Assembly (NCBI GenBank): GCA_021783135.1
Contig: JAJXUE010000001.1
Coordinates: forward strand, 111,055 to 175,054
Source of the DNA: Bacillota bacterium
Lineage (GTDB): Bacteria > Bacillota > Desulfitobacteriia > Desulfitobacteriales > JAJXUE01
DNA: 64,000 nucleotides
Reading direction: 5' to 3'
Each line of letters begins with the position of its first letter. Position 1 is the first letter of the stretch. Under the pieces are notes generated by a model that did no database searches, was not told the origin of the DNA, and worked only from the letters and a program-made list of their open reading frames with translations. Below are positions 9,897 to 18,677 of this stretch, one piece after another. Position numbers and translations under genes: made by a program.

Positions 9897-9971
9897 GCGG
9901 AAGTGGCTCAGTGGTAGAGCATTGGCTTCCCAAGCCGAGGGTCGCGGGTTCGAATCCCGTCTTCCGCTCCA
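9897..9971 (+). tRNA. tRNA-Gly (CCC)
   Basis: Acceptor GCGGAAG/CTTCCGC, anticodon loop TTCCCAA, T-arm GCGGG-TTCGAAT-CCCGT, encoded CCA. Confidence 0.9.
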
Positions 9972-10111: not shown

Positions 10112-10138
10112 TTGCCTAAATTGCCTATATTGCCTAAT
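10112..10138 (+). repeat. Three tandem 9-bp units TTGCCTA-AA / -TA / -AT
   Basis: Read directly. A fourth copy (TTGCCTATA) lies at 9999-10007. The array overlaps the nominal start of the HTH ORF. Confidence 0.9.
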
Positions 10139-10720
10139 TTGATTAAGGAAGGAATTGAAACTTTAAAAGAAATGATAGTCAACAGCGAGGGACAACTAAT
10201 CAACGGCCAAACCAACACAACCAATGAAACCAACACAACCAATGAAACCAACACAACCAATGAAACCAACACAACCAACACAACCAACACAACCAACACA
10301 ACCAACACAACCAACACAACCAACACAACCAACACAACCAACGCAACCAACGCAACCAACGCAACCAACGCAACCAATGAAACCAATGAAACCAATGAAA
10401 CCAATGAAACCAATGAACCTTCGTTAGCAGTGGGGAATGCTGTCTCATCTGAGAATTTTCCGGCGAGAAAATTTCAGGTTAACCTAAAAGGAGTCACCAA
10501 ATTTAGGCCTCCGGATCGAGTGCTGAACCGAATATTATACGGGCTGATGTTAGTTGAAGACATTAAAACCATTGAAATGGCGCGTTTATTGGGTGTTAGC
10601 CAACGGGCAGTTGAACGTTGGATTTCGGAAGGAATTGTACCGAAGCAACCCAGACAAGATATGTTATCCACCATCTTGAAGTGTCCTCCACACATATTAT
10701 TTAGTGAAGTTGATAAATAA
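10112..10720 (+). CDS. Hypothetical DNA-binding protein: N-terminal (Thr-Asn-X)23 low-complexity tract plus C-terminal helix-turn-helix
   Basis: The ORF is open from TTG 10112 but has no convincing SD, so the start is uncertain. The HTH is [24 protein letters not shown]. The true product could instead be only the C-terminal ~60-90 aa. Confidence 0.45.
10211..10417 (+). repeat. 23 x 9-bp perfect tandem array in blocks: (ACCAACACA-ACCAATGAA)x3, ACCAACACA x8, ACCAACGCA x4, ACCAATGAA x5
   Basis: Counted unit by unit from the sequence. There are three unit variants differing at 1-3 positions and no degenerate copies. Confidence 0.95.
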
Positions 10721-11561: not shown

Positions 11562-11590
11562 TTTACCCACTCTCAGTCATATGGTATAAT
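11562..11590 (+). promoter_or_regulatory. Promoter of the SCIFF precursor gene
   Basis: TTTACC, 17 nt spacer, extended -10 TGgTATAAT. Confidence 0.6.
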
Positions 11591-11621: not shown

Positions 11622-11762
11622 TTGACAAAACATATTGTGACGATTACCAAGGCCAATCTTAAAGATACTTTGAAAACAGGCGGTTGCGGTGAATGCCAGA
11701 CTTCTTGCCAATCTGCCTGCAAAACGTCTTGCACGGTCGGTAATCAAGTTTGTGTTAAATAG
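11622..11762 (+). CDS. SCIFF (six cysteines in forty-five residues) ranthipeptide precursor, 46 aa
   Basis: It is absent from the ORF track. TTG start lies 6 nt after AGGAGGG. Translation is MTKHIVTITKANLKDTLKTGGCGECQTSCQSACKTSCTVGNQVCVK. The GGCGECQTSCQSACKTSCTVGNQ core is the family signature. Confidence 0.9.
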   Translation: MTKHIVTITKANLKDTLKTGGCGECQTSCQSACKTSCTVGNQVCVK

Positions 11763-11796
11763 GTCTAAGTTTTAGTCGCGTCAATCGAACAATAAG

Positions 11797-11822
11797 CCCA
11801 GCCCACAATTGGGCTGGGTTTT
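11797..11822 (+). terminator. Intrinsic terminator/attenuator between the SCIFF precursor and its maturase
   Basis: Stem CCCAGCCC, loop acaatt, stem GGGCTGGG, followed by TTTT. Confidence 0.7.
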
Positions 11823-11850
11823 AACTTTTATCTCGAGGAGGAAATTTTCT

Positions 11851-13269
11851 TTGGATTTGATCAACTACAACTTTGCGAGTAATCTGCACTGCTTTGAACA
11901 AGGCGGGATGAAGATTGTTTTAGACGTTAACAGCGGTTCGCTGCATTCTCTAGATGGGTGTGCTTGGGAAGTAATACAGCAACTGATTGCGTATAAGGGT
12001 TGTTGGGAGGAGGTTCAGGCCGACCTTGCGGCTAGATATTCTGCCGTGGAGTTAGCGGAAGTACTGGCTGAACTAACTCAGTTGGCGCAAGAAGGCAGTC
12101 TCTTTACGACTGATGTTACATATGTCAGGCCCGAGTTCCCCCGCGAGCCAGTGGTTAAAGCGATTTGCTTACATGTAGCGCATGACTGTAATTTAAGGTG
12201 TGAGTATTGTTTTGCCGGGACGGGTGATTTCGGTGGCGACCGTTCCCTTATGAGCCTAGAGGTGGGTAAACAAGCAATCCGGTTTGTTCTGGAGAAGTCG
12301 CGGCAGCGTAATCACTGTGAGGTAGATTTCTTTGGCGGGGAACCGCTGGTAAACCTTTCGGTGGTAAGGGAGCTTGTCGCTTATGGCCAAGTTGAGGCTG
12401 CCAAGCTAGGAAAAACAATCAAATTTACCCTCACTACCAATGCCGTACTTCTAAACCAGCAGGTGCGGGAGTTCCTGGCAACGAATGATATAAGTGTAGT
12501 GATGAGCCTTGACGGCAGACCTGAGGTCAACGATAAAATGCGTCCCTATGCCGACGGTTCTGGGAGCTATGCTACAATAGTTAAAAATATTCAGGCCTTT
12601 GCGGCTGAAAACAAGAATTCATCACAGTATGCGGTCGGCACTTACTATTATGTGCGAGGGACGTATACACATCATAATCTGGACTTTGATCTTGACGTCT
12701 TACATATGGCGGACTTGGGAATTAAGCAAATTTCTGTTGAACCAGTCGTGGCGTCGCCGCAAGATCAATATGCTTTTCGACCGGAAGATCTGCCTGTATT
12801 AATGCAAAGTTACGAGCGTTTAGCTGATGCATATCTGGAGCGGCAGGATAATTCAGACGGATTCGACTTTTTCCATTTTAATTTGGAACTCGGTAAAGGC
12901 CCTTGCCTTCCTAAACGTCTTTCGGGTTGTGGCGCCGGGCACGAATATTTGGCTGTAGCGCCGGATGGATCCCTTTTTCCTTGCCACCAGTTTGTCGGTA
13001 ACCCGGAATTTAAGGTGGGCGACGTTTTTAGTGGCGAGATTGATCTTGAAATGGCGGCTCGCTTCCGCGATGCGCACGTTTATAATAAACCGGAGTGCCG
13101 CAAATGCTGGGCTAGGTTTTTCTGCAGCGGAGGGTGCCATGCAGCGGCGTTTAATTTTAACGGTGACCTGCACCAACCGTATGAATTGGGCTGTAAATTG
13201 CAACGTAAGCGCTTAGAGAGCGCAATGTACATTAAGGCCAAGCAAGCATTAAGTCAAGCAATTAGTTAG
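11851..13269 (+). CDS. SCIFF radical-SAM/SPASM peptide maturase (thioether-forming)
   Basis: CNLRCEYCF radical-SAM cluster motif and HCFEQGGMKIVLDVNSGSLH N-terminus as in CteB/Tte1186-type enzymes. The C-terminal Cys-rich SPASM region is CGAG...FPCHQF...CRKCWARFFCSGGCHA. TTG 11851 lies 9 nt after GGAGGA. The track start 11809 lies inside the terminator hairpin. Confidence 0.88.
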   Translation: MDLINYNFASNLHCFEQGGMKIVLDVNSGSLHSLDGCAWEVIQQLIAYKGCWEEVQADLAARYSAVELAEVLAELTQLAQEGSLFTTDVTYVRPEFPREPVVKAICLHVAHDCNLRCEYCFAGTGDFGGDRSLMSLEVGKQAIRFVLEKSRQRNHCEVDFFGGEPLVNLSVVRELVAYGQVEAAKLGKTIKFTLTTNAVLLNQQVREFLATNDISVVMSLDGRPEVNDKMRPYADGSGSYATIVKNIQAFAAENKNSSQYAVGTYYYVRGTYTHHNLDFDLDVLHMADLGIKQISVEPVVASPQDQYAFRPEDLPVLMQSYERLADAYLERQDNSDGFDFFHFNLELGKGPCLPKRLSGCGAGHEYLAVAPDGSLFPCHQFVGNPEFKVGDVFSGEIDLEMAARFRDAHVYNKPECRKCWARFFCSGGCHAAAFNFNGDLHQPYELGCKLQRKRLESAMYIKAKQALSQAIS

Positions 13270-13284
13270 GAAGGATTTGATTGA

Positions 13285-15273
13285 GTGACTGAGCGCCGTA
13301 CAGTATGTCCTTTGAACTGTTTTGATTCCTGCAGTTTAATTGCCAGGGTGGACGCGGGCAAGCTTACCGCGGTCGGCGGTGACCCGGAACATCCTGTAAC
13401 CCAGGGTTTTATTTGTCCTAAGGGCAAGGCTTTGGCAGAAAGAGTCTATAGCCCGGATAGAGTTACCTTCCCATTATTTAAAAGTAAGGGGACATGGCAA
13501 CGCATTACTTGGCAGGATGCTTATGCCATCTGGGCGGAAAAGCTTGTCAAGGCTAGGGAGCAATACGGTTCTCTTTCAGTCCTGCATCACTTTGACTATG
13601 GTTCCAACGGACTGTTGCGCAGTCTTGATCGCCGCTTCTTTAATGTCTTTGGCGGGGTCACAGTTCCCACCGGCAGTTTGTGTTGGGGCAGCGGCATCGC
13701 AGCTCAATTGTATGATTTTGGCGGATATTACAGCCATAGTTGGAGAGACTTGTCTAACTCCCGTACAATTATTTTGTGGGGACGAGATCCGATTGTTACC
13801 AACTTGCATATGCTACCATTTTTACGCAAGGCTAAAGAGCAGGCGGCCCAGATTTATGTAATTAACCCAACTAAGGTCAAGTCGGTAGACTTGGCTGACC
13901 ACTATATAAGTGTTCGACCGGGTACGGACGGGGCTTTGGCATTAGGCTTAGCCTATATTATTTTAGAGGAACGTTTATTAGATTTAGGTTTTGTCCAAAA
14001 CTATGTACAGGGTTTTGCTGAATATGCTGCAATGGTGAAAGAGTTCCCCCCGGAAAAGGTAAGTGAAATCACGGGTGTACCCCTCCAAGTTATGCAGGAA
14101 TTGGCGCGGACCGTTGCCAGACAAAAGCCTACAGCAGTTATCTTTGGCTATGGCCCGCAACGCTATACGAACGGAGGGCAAACGATCCGAGCCATAAATG
14201 CGCTAATGGCTATTACAGGCAATATTGGCATATCCGGCGGGGGAGCAAATTATGCGCACCAATATAATCAAGGTTTGTTTAAAGACCTGACCCTACCTGA
14301 GTTAGCTCGGCATAAGCGGGAAATACCATTTGCGTCGCTTGGAAGACAGATACCGCAACTCGATCCGCCGCTTAAGGTTGCGGTTGTAACCAGGTCGAAC
14401 CCTGTATGTCAGCATCCTGATACTGCAGTTTTCAGCCGCTCATTTCAGAGTATTGACTTTAAGGTCACCATTGATTTTCACCTCAACGATACGGCGGCTG
14501 TCTCAGATTTGTTTTTACCTTGTACAACTATTTTTGAGGAAGAGGATTTGATTGCGACTTCATGGAGCGAATATCTTGGTTATGCTCCTAAATTGATAGA
14601 ACCTGTGGGCGAGTCCAAACCAGACCCGCTAATTTTCAGTGAGTTGGCCCAAGTGTTGGGAATGGGAGACTACTTTACGAAGACGAGCGCAGAATGGCTC
14701 GATGAAGCACTCGAACCGGCGGAAAAAAAGTTTGGTTTGACACTCGCTAGCTTGCGTGAAGGCTGGATCAGAAACCCGCAATTTAAAGATGTGGCTTGGC
14801 AAGAGCGTAGTTTTAACACTCCTTCCGGCAAAGTTGAATTGTTTTCGCAGCAGGCATTGGAGCAAGTCGGCGAGGGAACAGCACGCTTTGTCCCGGCGCT
14901 GGAGAGTGGTTCACAGGAGCTTGCGGGGTACCCGCTTTATTTTCTCACACCGCACCCATCCAACGCCTTGCACTCGCAATTTAATGCGGACGCGGATAAT
15001 TACCCATATTTAGATATTAACCCGGAGACGGCTGAGAGCTATTACCTGCGTGATAACGATTTGGTGGTAGTGGAATCACTGCGTGGGCAACTGCTTTGTC
15101 GAGCCAGACATAGTGGGCGTCAACGAGCTGATACCGTTCAGGTAACTGAAGGAAAATGGCTTAAATTCGGTGGCGGAGTTAATTTCCTTACCCCAGGATT
15201 TCGCACAGATATGGGTGATGGTGTTCCCTACTACGATTGTCGCTGCCAATTGCGCAAATATTTTCCCGGGTAA
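13285..15273 (+). CDS. Cytoplasmic molybdopterin (bis-MGD) oxidoreductase, DmsA-like catalytic subunit without partner subunits
   Basis: N-terminal C8-x3-C12-x3-C16-x27-C44 FeS motif. GYGPQRYTNGGQTIRAINALMAITGNIGISGGG matches the DMSO-reductase-family core. A C-terminal MopB_CT-like barrel is present. There is no Tat signal. Confidence 0.8.
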   Translation: MTERRTVCPLNCFDSCSLIARVDAGKLTAVGGDPEHPVTQGFICPKGKALAERVYSPDRVTFPLFKSKGTWQRITWQDAYAIWAEKLVKAREQYGSLSVLHHFDYGSNGLLRSLDRRFFNVFGGVTVPTGSLCWGSGIAAQLYDFGGYYSHSWRDLSNSRTIILWGRDPIVTNLHMLPFLRKAKEQAAQIYVINPTKVKSVDLADHYISVRPGTDGALALGLAYIILEERLLDLGFVQNYVQGFAEYAAMVKEFPPEKVSEITGVPLQVMQELARTVARQKPTAVIFGYGPQRYTNGGQTIRAINALMAITGNIGISGGGANYAHQYNQGLFKDLTLPELARHKREIPFASLGRQIPQLDPPLKVAVVTRSNPVCQHPDTAVFSRSFQSIDFKVTIDFHLNDTAAVSDLFLPCTTIFEEEDLIATSWSEYLGYAPKLIEPVGESKPDPLIFSELAQVLGMGDYFTKTSAEWLDEALEPAEKKFGLTLASLREGWIRNPQFKDVAWQERSFNTPSGKVELFSQQALEQVGEGTARFVPALESGSQELAGYPLYFLTPHPSNALHSQFNADADNYPYLDINPETAESYYLRDNDLVVVESLRGQLLCRARHSGRQRADTVQVTEGKWLKFGGGVNFLTPGFRTDMGDGVPYYDCRCQLRKYFPG

Positions 15274-15286
15274 GGGGGTAAGCATT

Positions 15287-16156
15287 TTGAGGCAAAAAAT
15301 ACTGGGGTTGAGCCTTTTTTTCTTGGTCGTCGCCATTCTTTCCGGTGCATTTTTCTATGGATATTATTACGGTAAACCGGGCAATGTTCAGGATCAAACT
15401 GTCGGTTCAGCTACTGATCCTCTGAATGTAATTAAAAATCTTGAGAAACAAGCGCAGGGTAACCCGAATAACCTCAGCATCACAGAGACCTTGGGTGATG
15501 ACTATTTTGATTTAGCCAGTAGTCTGAGAAATAACGGTGATACGCAGCAGTCGCAGCTGTATTTTGCCAAAGCTGCTGCAACCTACAGTAAGGTCATGGC
15601 TTCAGAACCTACCCGAGTAGATGTGCAAACTGACATGGCCACTGCTCTATATTACAGTAATCAGCCGGATCAGGCTGAAGCAGCTTACAAAAAGGCAATT
15701 CAGATTAATCCTAACTATTTAAATGCAAGGTTAAATTATGGCATCTTTTTGCTTTATGTACGGGGAGATACGACCGGCGCCAGAAAAGAGTTGTTTAAGG
15801 CGATGTCCCTGCAGCCTTCTAGCGATACTTTGACTAAAATAAGGTCAATTTTGGCCCAAACCGATGCAACCACTGTTTCCCCCAGTACCAGTGGTACTCC
15901 GGATTGGAGTAAGGATATTGAGCCTGTAATATTTCAGGCGTGTGCTGCCCAGTGTCATGGTCCGGGTGGAACAATGGCCCAGGCGCCATTGCAAGACTAT
16001 AATGCAGTAATGAAGTTTGTAACCCCCGGCGATATTAATAGTCCATTACTGCAGAGAATTAAAGACGGGCACGGTGTGAAGCTTGATGCGGCAACAATTG
16101 AGTTAATCCAGCGATGGGTTGCAGGCGGAGCTCCGGGACCCAAGTCAGGTTCCTAG
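15287..16156 (+). CDS. Membrane-anchored TPR-repeat protein with a C-terminal mono-haem cytochrome c domain
   Basis: TTG 15287 lies 8 nt after AAGGGGG. The N-terminal anchor is LGLSLFFLVVAILSGAFFYGYYY. A TPR-like AEAAYKKAIQINPNYLNARLNYG repeat is present, along with a CAAQCHG haem-binding site. The ...IQRWVAGGAPGP tail resembles the Planctomycete-type cytochrome c (PSCyt1) domain. Confidence 0.65.
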   Translation: MRQKILGLSLFFLVVAILSGAFFYGYYYGKPGNVQDQTVGSATDPLNVIKNLEKQAQGNPNNLSITETLGDDYFDLASSLRNNGDTQQSQLYFAKAAATYSKVMASEPTRVDVQTDMATALYYSNQPDQAEAAYKKAIQINPNYLNARLNYGIFLLYVRGDTTGARKELFKAMSLQPSSDTLTKIRSILAQTDATTVSPSTSGTPDWSKDIEPVIFQACAAQCHGPGGTMAQAPLQDYNAVMKFVTPGDINSPLLQRIKDGHGVKLDAATIELIQRWVAGGAPGPKSGS

Positions 16157-16171
16157 ACATTTTGGTCAATT

Positions 16172-16199
16172 TTGTGATTTGTCAAACATTTGTTATAAT
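16172..16199 (+). promoter_or_regulatory. Sigma-A-like promoter upstream of yycJ-like gene
   Basis: TTGTGA, 16 nt spacer, extended -10 TGtTATAAT. Confidence 0.55.
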
Positions 16200-16232: not shown

Positions 16233-17018
16233 ATGAAACTGGCTACACTAGCAAGCGGCAGTTCAGGTAACTCATCCGTTGTAACCGGCGGACAAACCTC
16301 ACTGTTAATCGATGCAGGGCTTAGCGGCAAGGGAATTAGTACTAGACTGGAGTCCCTTGGAGTGGATGTAAAGAAATTAGCAGGAATTTTGGTTACGCAC
16401 GAACATCAGGATCACATCCAAGGCGTGGGAGTTCTGGCTCGTAGGCATAAATTACCGGTTTATGCGCTGGAACCATGTTTCGCCGCAATGGAAGTTGGAG
16501 TGTTGCCGGATGGTTGTTGTCATGTTTTAGAGCAAGGCGAGGCTTTGGAAATTGGCGAGTTAAAAGTTGAGCTTTTTAATACCTCGCACGACAGCATGGC
16601 GAGTACTGGTTTTGTTTGTTTTCATGCCGAGAGTAAAATCGGATATGCTACAGACACTGGTGAAGTGTCACCTATAATGATTCGTAAATTGCGCGGCAGT
16701 AACGCCATGATTTTCGAGTCCAACCACGATGAAGAAATGCTATGGCGTGGCAGGTATCCTTATCACTTAAAGCAAAGGATTGCTGCTTCAACAGGACATC
16801 TATCTAACACCGATGCCGGTAAGGCTCTTGCTGAAATAATTGACCACAAGACCAAACGTATTATATTGGCCCATTTAAGCGAGGAAAATAACTTGCCGGA
16901 TATTGCCCTACACACAGTGGGTAATATATTACACGAAGCGGGAGTGCCTGCTTTAGCACCGGAATTGAAAATTCGGACTGCGCCCCGCCATATGCCATTG
17001 GGGGTTGAGGACGTCTAA
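16233..17018 (+). CDS. yycJ: Metallo-beta-lactamase-fold hydrolase, YycJ/WalJ-like
   Basis: ATG 16233 follows AGGAGAAAAG. It has the THEHQDH motif. The yycJ-htrA-rlmH order matches Bacillus. Confidence 0.75.
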   Translation: MKLATLASGSSGNSSVVTGGQTSLLIDAGLSGKGISTRLESLGVDVKKLAGILVTHEHQDHIQGVGVLARRHKLPVYALEPCFAAMEVGVLPDGCCHVLEQGEALEIGELKVELFNTSHDSMASTGFVCFHAESKIGYATDTGEVSPIMIRKLRGSNAMIFESNHDEEMLWRGRYPYHLKQRIAASTGHLSNTDAGKALAEIIDHKTKRIILAHLSEENNLPDIALHTVGNILHEAGVPALAPELKIRTAPRHMPLGVEDV

Positions 17019-17038
17019 CAAGTAGCTGAAGGAGAGTA

Positions 17039-18184
17039 GTGGTAATGGATTATTTCGATGAATCGTATCGTAAACGACCTAAGTATTTTCCGTACATAGT
17101 AATTGCGCTTGTTAGTGCCATTTTTGGGAGCATGTTTTCCTTGGCCATAGCGTCAAAGGTATTTAATCCCCAAACGCAGAACTCACCGGCCGGGCAAAAT
17201 TTGACCGCGACGCTGCCTCAACCTAGCCGCGGGGGGGAACCAAGCAGTTATCAAGTTGTAAATATAGCTAAAGAAATAGGCCCAGCGATAGTTGGCATAG
17301 CAAATTTTCAACCGGCTGACGCTTATGGCGGCTCTGATTTGCAGGAAATAGGCAGTGGTTCAGGGATTATAATCGATGCAGTGAAGGGCTACATTTTAAC
17401 CAACAATCACGTGGTAACCGGGGCTAAAAAATTAGTGGTTTCACTGGCAGACGGGCGCAATTTAGATGCTAAGATGATTGGAGCAGATGCTAGGACTGAT
17501 TTAGCGATCCTGCAAATAAGTGATACCAAAAGGCTGACAGCAGCGGCTATTGGTGACTCGAATGCCCTGCAAGTTGGAGAACCTGTTGTGGCTATTGGCA
17601 ATCCGGGGGGGCAGGAATTTGCCAGATCTGTTACTGTAGGGGTGGTTAGCGCCTTGAACCGGGTATTACAGTTGTCAGGTGAGTCTAGTTTTAATTTGAT
17701 TCAGACCGATGCTGCCATCAATCCGGGTAACAGTGGAGGAGCGTTAGTTAACTGGCAAGGTCAGGTAATCGGGATTAATTCGGCTAAGAATCAGGAACCG
17801 GGTTTTGAAGGTATGGGTTTTGCTATTCCGATTTCCGATGCTTGGCCTGTTGTTAAACAGCTTATCGCAACCGGACATGCCAGTCATGCAGGTTTGCTGG
17901 TGACAATTGACAATCGTTATAATGAGGAGTATGCCCAGGCCAAGGGATGGCCCGCGGGAGCACTCGTGCAAGATGTCTCGCCAAATGGGCCGGCCGATAA
18001 GGCCGGGGTGCAATCGGGAGACATTATTACTGCTGTAAATGGCAAGGCTGTAGCAAACTACTATGACCTGACACACGAGCTCTTTAAATATAAGGCCGGC
18101 GACACTATAAAACTCGTGATTTCACGCAATGGTAAGCAAATAACGACCAGTGTTGTGTTAGCCGAATTGCCTGCCGGAGAATAA
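17039..18184 (+). CDS. htrA: HtrA/DegP-family serine protease with N-terminal anchor and C-terminal PDZ domain
   Basis: Catalytic triad context TNNHVV, DLAILQ and GNSGGAL. The PDZ-like region is GDIITAVNGKAV. Confidence 0.88.
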   Translation: MVMDYFDESYRKRPKYFPYIVIALVSAIFGSMFSLAIASKVFNPQTQNSPAGQNLTATLPQPSRGGEPSSYQVVNIAKEIGPAIVGIANFQPADAYGGSDLQEIGSGSGIIIDAVKGYILTNNHVVTGAKKLVVSLADGRNLDAKMIGADARTDLAILQISDTKRLTAAAIGDSNALQVGEPVVAIGNPGGQEFARSVTVGVVSALNRVLQLSGESSFNLIQTDAAINPGNSGGALVNWQGQVIGINSAKNQEPGFEGMGFAIPISDAWPVVKQLIATGHASHAGLLVTIDNRYNEEYAQAKGWPAGALVQDVSPNGPADKAGVQSGDIITAVNGKAVANYYDLTHELFKYKAGDTIKLVISRNGKQITTSVVLAELPAGE

Positions 18185-18194
18185 GGCTGGTGAT

Positions 18195-18677
18195 TTGATG
18201 CAAATCAAAGTTGTGGCGGTAGGCAAGCTGAAGGAAAGATTTTGGCAAGCCGGAGTGGATGAGTACTTAAAGCGGTTGAAAAGTTACGCCAAGGTGGAAA
18301 TAATTGAAGTAGAAGATGAAAAATGTCCGGAGGCATATTCAGTTGCGCAGGCTTTACAAGTCAAACAACGTGAAGGGCAACGAATCATTAAGGCTGTTGG
18401 GCTTGGGAGTTTTGTCATTGCGCTGCATTTAACAGGCAAGGAATTCACCTCGGAAGGGTTCGCAGCATATCTGGATGATTTAGCTCTCAACAGTAGGAGT
18501 CATGTGACCTTTATTATCGGCGGGTCCTTGGGGCTGGCGAATGAGGTTTTAGAGCGGGCCGATTTGCATTTGGTATTTTCCCGCTTTACCCTGCCGCATC
18601 AATTGATTCGGGTTGTGTTACTTGAACAGCTTTACCGCGCTTGTAAAATTAGTCGTAATGAACCATATCATAAATGA
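18195..18677 (+). CDS. rlmH: 23S rRNA (pseudouridine1915-N3)-methyltransferase RlmH
   Basis: SPOUT fold of about 160 aa. It has KIKVVAVGKLKE at the N-terminus, FIIGGSLG, and a LPHQLIRVVLLEQLYRA tail. Confidence 0.9.
   Translation: MMQIKVVAVGKLKERFWQAGVDEYLKRLKSYAKVEIIEVEDEKCPEAYSVAQALQVKQREGQRIIKAVGLGSFVIALHLTGKEFTSEGFAAYLDDLALNSRSHVTFIIGGSLGLANEVLERADLHLVFSRFTLPHQLIRVVLLEQLYRACKISRNEPYHK

Follow-up and report, generated by a model that had tools for sequence, protein, structure and literature searches.

The region considered here, positions 11622–16156 of a 64,000-nucleotide (nt) window (the whole stretch of DNA that was analyzed, from genome G000), carries four tightly packed genes on one strand, recognized from a listing of open reading frames (ORFs) and from hidden Markov model (HMM) scans: scfA, for the SCIFF precursor peptide; scfB, for its thioether maturase; a gene for an oxidoreductase of the MopB superfamily (hereafter MopB); and a gene for a membrane-anchored protein with TPR repeats. 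These data suggest that the linkage of MopB to SCIFF is probably a conserved, historical, and non-dedicated association. An earlier note on this DNA had proposed that MopB, or the cytochrome-like domain of the TPR protein, is functionally tied to the thioether peptide; this proposal is not supported, given the losses of MopB from scfAB loci, the basal position of free-standing MopB forms, catalytic residues that are the same in free and linked enzymes, and a SCIFF core that is the same with and without MopB.

Under the history that we propose, scfA and scfB would stand at the head of an old, slowly rearranging, origin-proximal synteny block, of which the MopB gene would be an accessory member drawn from a widespread family of stand-alone, soluble cytoplasmic enzymes. 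One branch of this family would have been captured directly behind scfB and then inherited vertically, with many deletions; the TPR protein would be an older neighbor of SCIFF than MopB. In the window, read-through that starts at the scfA promoter and continues beyond the hairpin between scfA and scfB would most likely account for transcription of the MopB and TPR genes, which would therefore share regulation with the maturase. We infer an absence of biochemical coupling, such that MopB would be neither required by SCIFF nor dependent on it.

SCIFF and ScfB are near-universal in clostridial-type anaerobes (ScfB was detected in 319 genomes of an even sample of 401 from the phylum), and an enzyme kept with them as a true partner would have given a direct clue to their role; a neighbor such as MopB, conserved by descent and dispensable, would be a weak lead, not to be read as a tailoring enzyme. 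The available sections of two published accounts describe the conserved core of SCIFF/ranthipeptide systems as the precursor and the radical SAM (rSAM)/RRE gene only, with no mention of a MopB or TPR gene (PMC8326336, PMC13673991), and the sole role that they propose is quorum sensing, assigned to solventogenic clostridia in one of them (PMC8326336). No description of the MopB linkage was found in the main text of articles when the literature on SCIFF or ranthipeptides, and on SCIFF together with molybdopterin, was searched.

Conservation of MopB downstream of ScfB

An initial search of 40 relatives recovered clear MopB orthologs (41–68% identity) in three families. The order SCIFF-ScfB-MopB, then HtrA, was present in 19 of 19 fetched loci with enough flanking sequence, drawn from all three families (a twentieth locus was too short), and the TPR gene directly followed the MopB gene in 17 of these. 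A census of the class to which G000 belongs found ScfB in 110 of 112 genomes and MopB in approximately 40 of 112; at an ortholog threshold of E ≤ 1e-150, MopB is present in 37 genomes besides G000. Coordinates of the ScfB and MopB matches, compared by hand, show MopB immediately after ScfB, and in the same orientation, in all 35 class genomes with both on one contig, the pair being split over contigs in the other two.

The same arrangement extends to more divergent loci. Four of the seven fetched loci from f4, the second order of the class, have a divergent MopB (36–37% identity) right after ScfB, and an independent scan of the species collection, limited to its 80 best loci, placed ScfB directly upstream of MopB in 28. 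Among the remaining 52, four offer less than 400 nt of upstream flank. Named carriers include Desulfitobacterium, Desulfosporosinus, Paradesulfitobacterium, Acididesulfobacillus, Peptococcaceae bacterium CEB3, metagenome-assembled genomes of Gracilibacteraceae, and Heliorestis acidaminivorans.

Loss of MopB and its occurrence apart from scfAB

The distribution of MopB argues that the enzyme is dispensable beside scfAB. Approximately two-thirds of the genomes of the class have scfAB without MopB, and one genus has kept MopB in no more than 9 of its 42 genomes. Of the 12 MopB-less loci fetched from families f1–f3, 11 have the TPR gene immediately after ScfB. The twelfth, G003 (L041, 8165–8373), retains only MopB residues 602–661, a C-terminal remnant of 60 codons that lies between scfB and the TPR gene. 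Aligned as DNA to the congeneric G004 (L013), this locus shows a single deletion of 1,816 base pairs that begins 15 nt past the scfB stop and ends 181 nt ahead of the mopB stop; approximately 91% of mopB is gone, and the flanks are 85.6% identical.

Outside the class, the MopB family was found in 56 genomes of the phylum sample at a threshold of E ≤ 1e-125; MopB is linked to ScfB in seven of these, free in 48, and undeterminable in one. The free copies were placed by inspection of fetched loci (32) or by coordinates alone (16), and the seven linked cases correspond to 7 of approximately 305 ScfB-bearing genomes outside the class. Five of the seven linked loci (L054, L056, L057, L059, and L066) have a CcdA/DsbD_TM gene between scfB and mopB. 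Downstream, the same five loci hold genes for an M23/LysM/G5 peptidase, a CoA-binding protein, and a TrxR-like reductase, often with a copper ATPase, an HMA chaperone, and CcmE. Two genomes with the MopB family, G126 and G156, gave no ScfB match.

Free MopB copies have no recurrent partner; their neighbors are unrelated housekeeping genes and the like, including those for H+-PPase, M16 peptidases, histidine phosphatases, diacylglycerol kinase, PurA, and a cell-wall hydrolase. Two free genes occupy the same origin-proximal backbone with no scfAB nearby: that of L070 (G334) lies between HtrA and RlmH, and that of L072 (G461) a few kilobases past RlmH. The closest out-of-class MopB found is a free copy in G291 (55% identity), and the scfAB locus of that genome (L111) has no MopB. 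Remoter free relatives, at 30–40% identity, occur in Bacilli and other phyla; those of Bacillus, Neobacillus, Metabacillus, and Alicyclobacillus are free-standing at 30–38% identity. Bacillus subtilis YyaE, an uncharacterized MopB protein of approximately 667 amino acids (aa) encoded near the origin, would be a candidate member of this family; a search of paper listings gave nothing on its function. A by-product of the survey is a widespread, uncharacterized family of stand-alone, predicted cytoplasmic and Cys-ligated MopB enzymes in Bacillota.

Phylogeny of the MopB family

A tree of 63 MopB family members was built with a quick IQ-TREE search (LG+G4), using two distant paralogs from G000 as outgroup; the fragments L032 and L091 and the species-collection loci were left out. 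In the rooted topology, free forms are basal, and all 31 linked forms fall within one derived clade of 35 members (SH-like approximate likelihood ratio test, 97) that also includes four free forms. Two of these four, the free copies of G291 and G130, share a new context, prephenate dehydratase-x-MopB-aminotransferase-cyclase-GT4. The simplest history, though not a proven one, would be one capture behind scfB followed by vertical descent, many deletions, and one relocation.

Sequence, predicted cofactor, and fold of MopB

The MopB gene (13285–15273, + strand, GTG start) encodes a predicted cytoplasmic protein of 662 aa, which belongs to the MopB superfamily of Mo/W-bis-pterin guanine dinucleotide oxidoreductases on the basis of its Pfam matches to the Fe4S4, Molybdopterin, and Molydop_binding domains (PF04879, 55 bits; PF00384, 137.5 bits; PF01568, 53 bits). 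The iron–sulfur (FeS) motif that the earlier note had described, C8-x3-C12-x3-C16-x27-C44 (Cys codons at 13306–13416), is indeed present, and its four cysteines are invariant in 63 of 63 aligned family members. The note had also described an enzyme with neither a Tat signal nor partner subunits, and both points hold. Because the ORF cannot start 5′ of 13285 and the first cluster cysteine is residue 8, there is no room for a Tat signal; no signal peptide was found on MopB, and neither the ORF listing nor the gene maps of relatives place genes for FeS or membrane partner subunits near it.

A putative molybdenum/tungsten (Mo/W) ligand, Cys133 (13681–13683), aligns with Sec140 of FdhH and with the corresponding Cys of 7bkb_D, and is kept in 59 of 63 family members, including 32 of 32 free forms. 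Catalytic residues are alike in free and SCIFF-linked enzymes, and no sequence feature points to a changed role in the linked ones. The most divergent of the SCIFF-linked forms, in the f4 relatives L039, L047, L051, and L052, lie on a long branch and have S, G, A, and A in place of the ligand cysteine, with the FeS cysteines kept; these proteins may have an altered cofactor or may not be catalytic.

No NCBIfam model reaches its cutoff for MopB. The protein scores 264 bits against TIGR01591 (formate dehydrogenase alpha; cutoff 666), 228 bits against TIGR02166 (DmsA/YnfE; cutoff 778), 221 bits against NF047855 (the assimilatory nitrate reductase NasC; cutoff 1100), 198 bits against the PhsA model (cutoff 694), and 188 bits against TIGR00509 (the S-/N-oxide reductases BisC/DorA/TorA; cutoff 1017). 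With no curated family cutoff reached, the label "DmsA-like" that MopB had been given in the earlier note fails; the best HMM matches are of formate dehydrogenase type, and the residue at the ligand position is a cysteine. DmsA has a Cx3Cx3C spacing of the first three cluster cysteines. MopB shares this spacing but differs from DmsA/YnfE in having no Tat signal, no DmsB/DmsC partners, and a Cys at the ligand position.

The closest PDB sequences are formate dehydrogenases (7bkb_D, E 4.6e-51; FdhH, 1aa6, E 7.3e-48). MopB resembles Escherichia coli FdhH and the FdhA of 7bkb in its N-terminal 4Fe-4S domain, in the cysteine at the Sec140/Cys position, in being monomeric, and in size. However, its score falls far below the formate dehydrogenase cutoff (264 vs. 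666), Cys133 is followed by Trp, in contrast to the His of FdhH and 7bkb_D, the spacing of the first two FeS cysteines is x3 rather than x2, and no formate-related genes are found among its neighbors.

Structural comparison was less discriminating. A confident AlphaFold 2 model of MopB (pLDDT 91.9, pTM 0.92) matched all MopB structures to a similar degree (query TM-scores 0.8–0.87; 15–24% identity). The Foldseek ranking is nearly flat (E 1e-53 to 1e-47; TM-scores 0.82–0.87; 20–24% identity), and by a small margin its top ranks go to two S-oxide reductases, MtsZ (7l5i) and DorA (1h5n), with E values of approximately 1e-53 to 1e-50. Across the type III S-/N-oxide reductases (Haemophilus influenzae MtsZ 7l5i, Rhodobacter DorA 1h5n/1dmr, and TorA 1tmo), E values span 1.3e-53 to 1e-49, with query TM-scores of 0.82–0.86 and identities of 22–24%. 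Type III enzymes have no FeS domain, have Ser as the metal ligand, and reside in the periplasm, whereas the MopB of the window has an FeS domain, a Cys at the ligand position, and no signal peptide. An S-oxide substrate for MopB is neither supported nor excluded by these comparisons.

Public names of MopB homologs are generic, and MopB falls in no clade with an established substrate, an outcome that the earlier note would have counted as refutation had it been otherwise. We assign MopB to an uncharacterized clade and read it as a soluble monomer that has one 4Fe-4S cluster and a predicted Mo/W-bis-pterin cofactor with Cys as ligand.

Cofactor biosynthesis genes in G000 were also inspected. MoaA and MoaC are present, the latter (C67:9387–9767) ending at the edge of the 9,769-nt contig C67. 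MoeA_N, present in four relatives, was not found in G000, and no MobA match exceeded its cutoff; the genome is 96.7% complete. Loss of molybdenum cofactor synthesis was considered and set aside, with MoaA and MoaC both present; because MoaC is cut by the contig end, an assembly gap is the simpler reading.

The SCIFF peptide and its maturase

The scfA gene (11622–11762, + strand) encodes a 46-aa peptide with six cysteines (C22, C25, C29, C33, C37, and C44). Its scores against PF13165 (E 5.8e-25; 87.3 bits vs. a cutoff of 27) and TIGR03973 (85 bits vs. 50), together with the position of scfB 89 nt downstream, identify it as a SCIFF precursor. The scfB gene (11851–13269, + strand) encodes a radical SAM/SPASM thioether maturase with Radical_SAM, Fer4_12, and SPASM domains. 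It scores 582.6 bits against TIGR03974 (cutoff 425) and 497 against the "not_ScfB" exception model (cutoff 855), and PF04055 and PF13186 both exceed their cutoffs, as befits a ScfB maturase. Its start is most likely TTG at 11851, behind the ribosome-binding site GGAGGA; the ORF is open from 11809, an unlikely start since this position falls within the hairpin described below. The pair resembles the established SCIFF/ScfB ranthipeptide systems (CteA/CteB, Tte1186a/Tte1186) in passing both curated cutoffs, in its six cysteines, in the adjacency of the two genes, and in the hairpin between them.

The SCIFF core, C22–C44, is invariant in 22 relatives and is the same in genomes with and without MopB; the entire peptide is the same in G004, which has MopB, and in G003, which has lost it. 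Such natural sister genomes, with and without MopB, make the idea of coupling cheaply testable. Complex prediction from MopB and SCIFF alignments returned a score of 0.00 in two runs; controls were not folded, and the result was counted neither way.

A second ScfB-like maturase was observed in L038 (G016 C1:382000–395500) and also in G094, with 42% identity to the ScfB of the window and approximately 606 bits against TIGR03974. No SCIFF peptide was detected near the L038 copy by tblastn, and this maturase may be an orphan or differently paired.

Gene layout and expression signals

The intergenic gaps given in the earlier note were recovered exactly: 15 nt between scfB and the MopB gene (stop 13269, GTG 13285), and 13 nt between the MopB and TPR genes (stop 15273, TTG 15287). 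The spacing between ScfB and MopB in relatives has an estimated median of 48 nt, with 19 of 25 gaps below 100 nt, and no convincing terminator was found in these 25 spacers.

A sigma-70-type promoter-like site precedes scfA (11562–11590, + strand; TTTACC-17-TATAAT with TG), and a TGnTATAAT box occupies this position in 12 of 15 aligned upstream regions from relatives in the class. Between scfA and scfB lies a hairpin with a T-rich tail (11794–11831, + strand); the hairpin itself, at 11794–11821, has 12 pairs, 7 of them G-C, and a folding energy of −21.5 kcal/mol. A hairpin occurs at this position in 25 of 25 relatives, with differing sequences and raw folds of −11.9 to −27.4 kcal/mol. We read it as a terminator or attenuator, in the usual precursor/maturase layout.

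The terminator scan found no strong terminator downstream of 11831 within the gene group; other terminator-like matches are weak, and the total of 12 is close to a shuffle mean of 8.1 (standard deviation 3.1). The next promoter-like site after the one before scfA precedes the MBL-fold gene that follows the TPR gene (16172–16199, + strand; TTGTGA-16-TATAAT with TG), where the earlier note had placed a promoter. The note had seen no terminator before this promoter, a statement that, given the strong hairpin at 11794–11821 within the stretch, is true only downstream of that hairpin. The layout of scfA-scfB-MopB-TPR is supported as operon-like, and the linkage of MopB is probably transcriptional; co-transcription is what we infer from the spacing and the predicted signals.

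The synteny block around scfAB

Gene maps and Pfam scans of the loci combine into a composite order that runs DnaB-…-PurA-…-scfA-scfB-[CcdA]-[MopB]-[M23/LysM/G5 peptidase]-[CoA-binding + pyridine-nucleotide-disulfide reductase]-TPR-[Peptidase_MA-like]-[EPSP_synthase-family, MurA-like]-[methyltransferase]-MBL-HtrA-RlmH. The last three genes are represented in the window, all on the + strand, by an MBL-fold hydrolase (16234–17018; Pfam), an HtrA-type protease (17039–18184; Pfam), and an RlmH-type methyltransferase (18195–18677; labeled from reading of the ORF, without an HMM scan), and their order across 16234–18677 is kept in relatives. The block also occurs without MopB outside the class (L102, L104, L107, L108, and L111). 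Since functionally unrelated genes keep their order over equal evolutionary depth, the retained position of MopB is not special. A further by-product is the resulting map of older scfAB neighbors, namely the TPR anchor, M23 peptidase, TrxR-like reductase, and CcdA.

Alternative explanations for the linkage

Several observations weigh against a purely historical association. ScfB and MopB have stayed next to each other, in one orientation and with short spacers between them, even where MopB has diverged to 36% identity, and genes kept together in this way are the classical mark of a selected operon. No MopB ortholog of the class was found in any place other than behind scfB. The linked loci of several lineages hold thiol-redox genes (CcdA/DsbD_TM, CoA-binding/TrxR-like reductase), which would suit a Cys-rich peptide, and the finding of the same core peptide with and without MopB is compatible with an enzyme that acts on the peptide optionally. 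The tree, too, has an outgroup that is distant and on long branches, several weak deep nodes, and a quick search behind it.

These points bear most directly on a dedicated coupling, in which MopB of the linked clade would work in the SCIFF pathway, oxidizing or reducing thioether or Cys sulfur or handling a by-product of ScfB. We regard this as unlikely. The adjacency is strict (35 of 35 placeable class genomes and seven lineages outside the class) and the spacers are short and without terminators, but the neighbors in the block are equally conserved in order though functionally mixed, and MopB is missing from most scfAB genomes of the class, cleanly deleted in the case of G003, with no change in the SCIFF core that tracks its presence. 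The grouping of linked forms in a single derived clade could signal that they gained another function; however, free and linked forms share catalytic residues, and the four most divergent linked forms, those of f4, lack the ligand cysteine. The S-oxide reductases MtsZ (7l5i) and DorA (1h5n) would be suggestive as top Foldseek matches, were the ranking among MopB folds not nearly flat.

It also seems improbable that the whole block (scfAB, CcdA, MopB, the M23 peptidase, the TrxR-like reductase, the TPR anchor, the MurA-like enzyme, and HtrA) forms a supra-operon for envelope and thiol-redox functions, with MopB as its redox module and SCIFF as a housekeeping peptide rather than a secreted signal. 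The same order does recur within the class, its second order f4 included, and elsewhere in the phylum in further families, and CcdA, the TrxR-like reductase, the M23/LysM/G5 peptidase, Lgt, and the EPSP_synthase-family (MurA-like) gene have envelope or thiol-redox functions; the wide spread of SCIFF is held to speak against an antimicrobial role in the available part of one account (PMC8326336). However, among 19 usable scfB loci from outside the class (hand-picked, not random), the M23 gene lies downstream in five and the TPR gene in four, while other outside-class lineages have SecDF or decarboxylase genes there instead. The presence of RlmH and PurA in the block indicates that unrelated housekeeping genes are kept in order as well.

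The two ideas may be combined: the SCIFF pair would head an ancient envelope/thiol-redox supra-operon (CcdA, TrxR-like reductase, M23 peptidase, TPR anchor, and HtrA), and the captured MopB would act on SCIFF sulfur, whether thioether or free Cys, by oxidation or repair. We consider this combination quite doubtful; were it true, the action of MopB on SCIFF sulfur would be the first biochemical handle on the purpose of SCIFF. Finally, an accidental adjacency peculiar to this genome, which the earlier note had offered as its alternative, is refuted by the 35 of 35 adjacency in the class and has next to no likelihood, as the neighborhood census that the note had suggested finds the same order in all 19 of the fetched loci, in each of the 35 class genomes that could be placed, and in 28 of the 80 best species-collection loci.

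The TPR protein and its heme-motif domain

The TPR gene (15287–16156, + strand, TTG start) encodes a membrane-anchored protein of 289 aa with a signal anchor, TPR repeats, and a C-terminal c-type-cytochrome-like domain (approximately 15884–16153). Matches above cutoff to TPR_19 (37.9 bits), TPR_2 (36.7 bits), TPR_17 (36.7 bits), and others place it among TPR proteins, and an N-terminal hydrophobic segment behind basic residues is found in 41 of 41 members of its cluster, in keeping with the anchor and repeats described in the earlier note. The anchor is predicted to leave the TPR part outside the membrane.

The heme motif CAAQCH (15941–15958), which the note had read as a single heme site, is present but has the form CX3CH rather than the canonical CxxCH; two relatives of the same family have CASCH, and the motif in the window thus carries a one-residue insertion. 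The domain occurs only in the family of the window (the window itself, G004, G003, and a fragment in G001), and its membership in the conserved unit is not supported. Its proposed likeness to Planctomycete-type cytochrome c is suggested by predicted structure and not by sequence: no Pfam match to PSCyt1 ("Planctomycete cytochrome C," PF07635) appears even at E 10 in the window and two relatives, the best weak Pfam matches being PccH (0.16, window) and Cytochrom_C (0.025, the two relatives), whereas nine of ten rows of an Atlas predicted-structure search name PSCyt1 in the aligned part (residues approximately 200–289; TM-scores by query 0.75–0.79). Beyond this predicted-structure match, the domain of the window differs in its CX3CH motif and in its fusion to a TPR anchor protein.

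Such a domain had also been called unusual for a Firmicute, a view that does not sit with the rest of the genome: G000 has a ResB gene, and two or more CxxCH motifs (as many as 14 in one case) occur in each of at least 20 ORFs of ≥80 aa on contigs C17, C51, C62, C66, and others. The heme domain, an addition confined to this family, is predicted to lie on the outer side of the membrane. The cytochrome domain was considered as an electron partner of MopB and rejected, on its predicted topology and its restriction to the family of the window; as the heme domain would be extracytoplasmic and MopB cytoplasmic, the two would not be direct partners.

Other features of the window

Upstream of the SCIFF region, the window contains a tRNA-Gly(CCC) gene (9897–9971) and an ORF (10112–10720) with approximately 20 tandem 9-nt repeats at 10210–10413 (unit AACCAACAC), which encode a TN/ETN-rich low-complexity stretch. 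The repeats are followed in the same ORF by a weak helix-turn-helix match (MerR/HTH_17, E approximately 1e-3).

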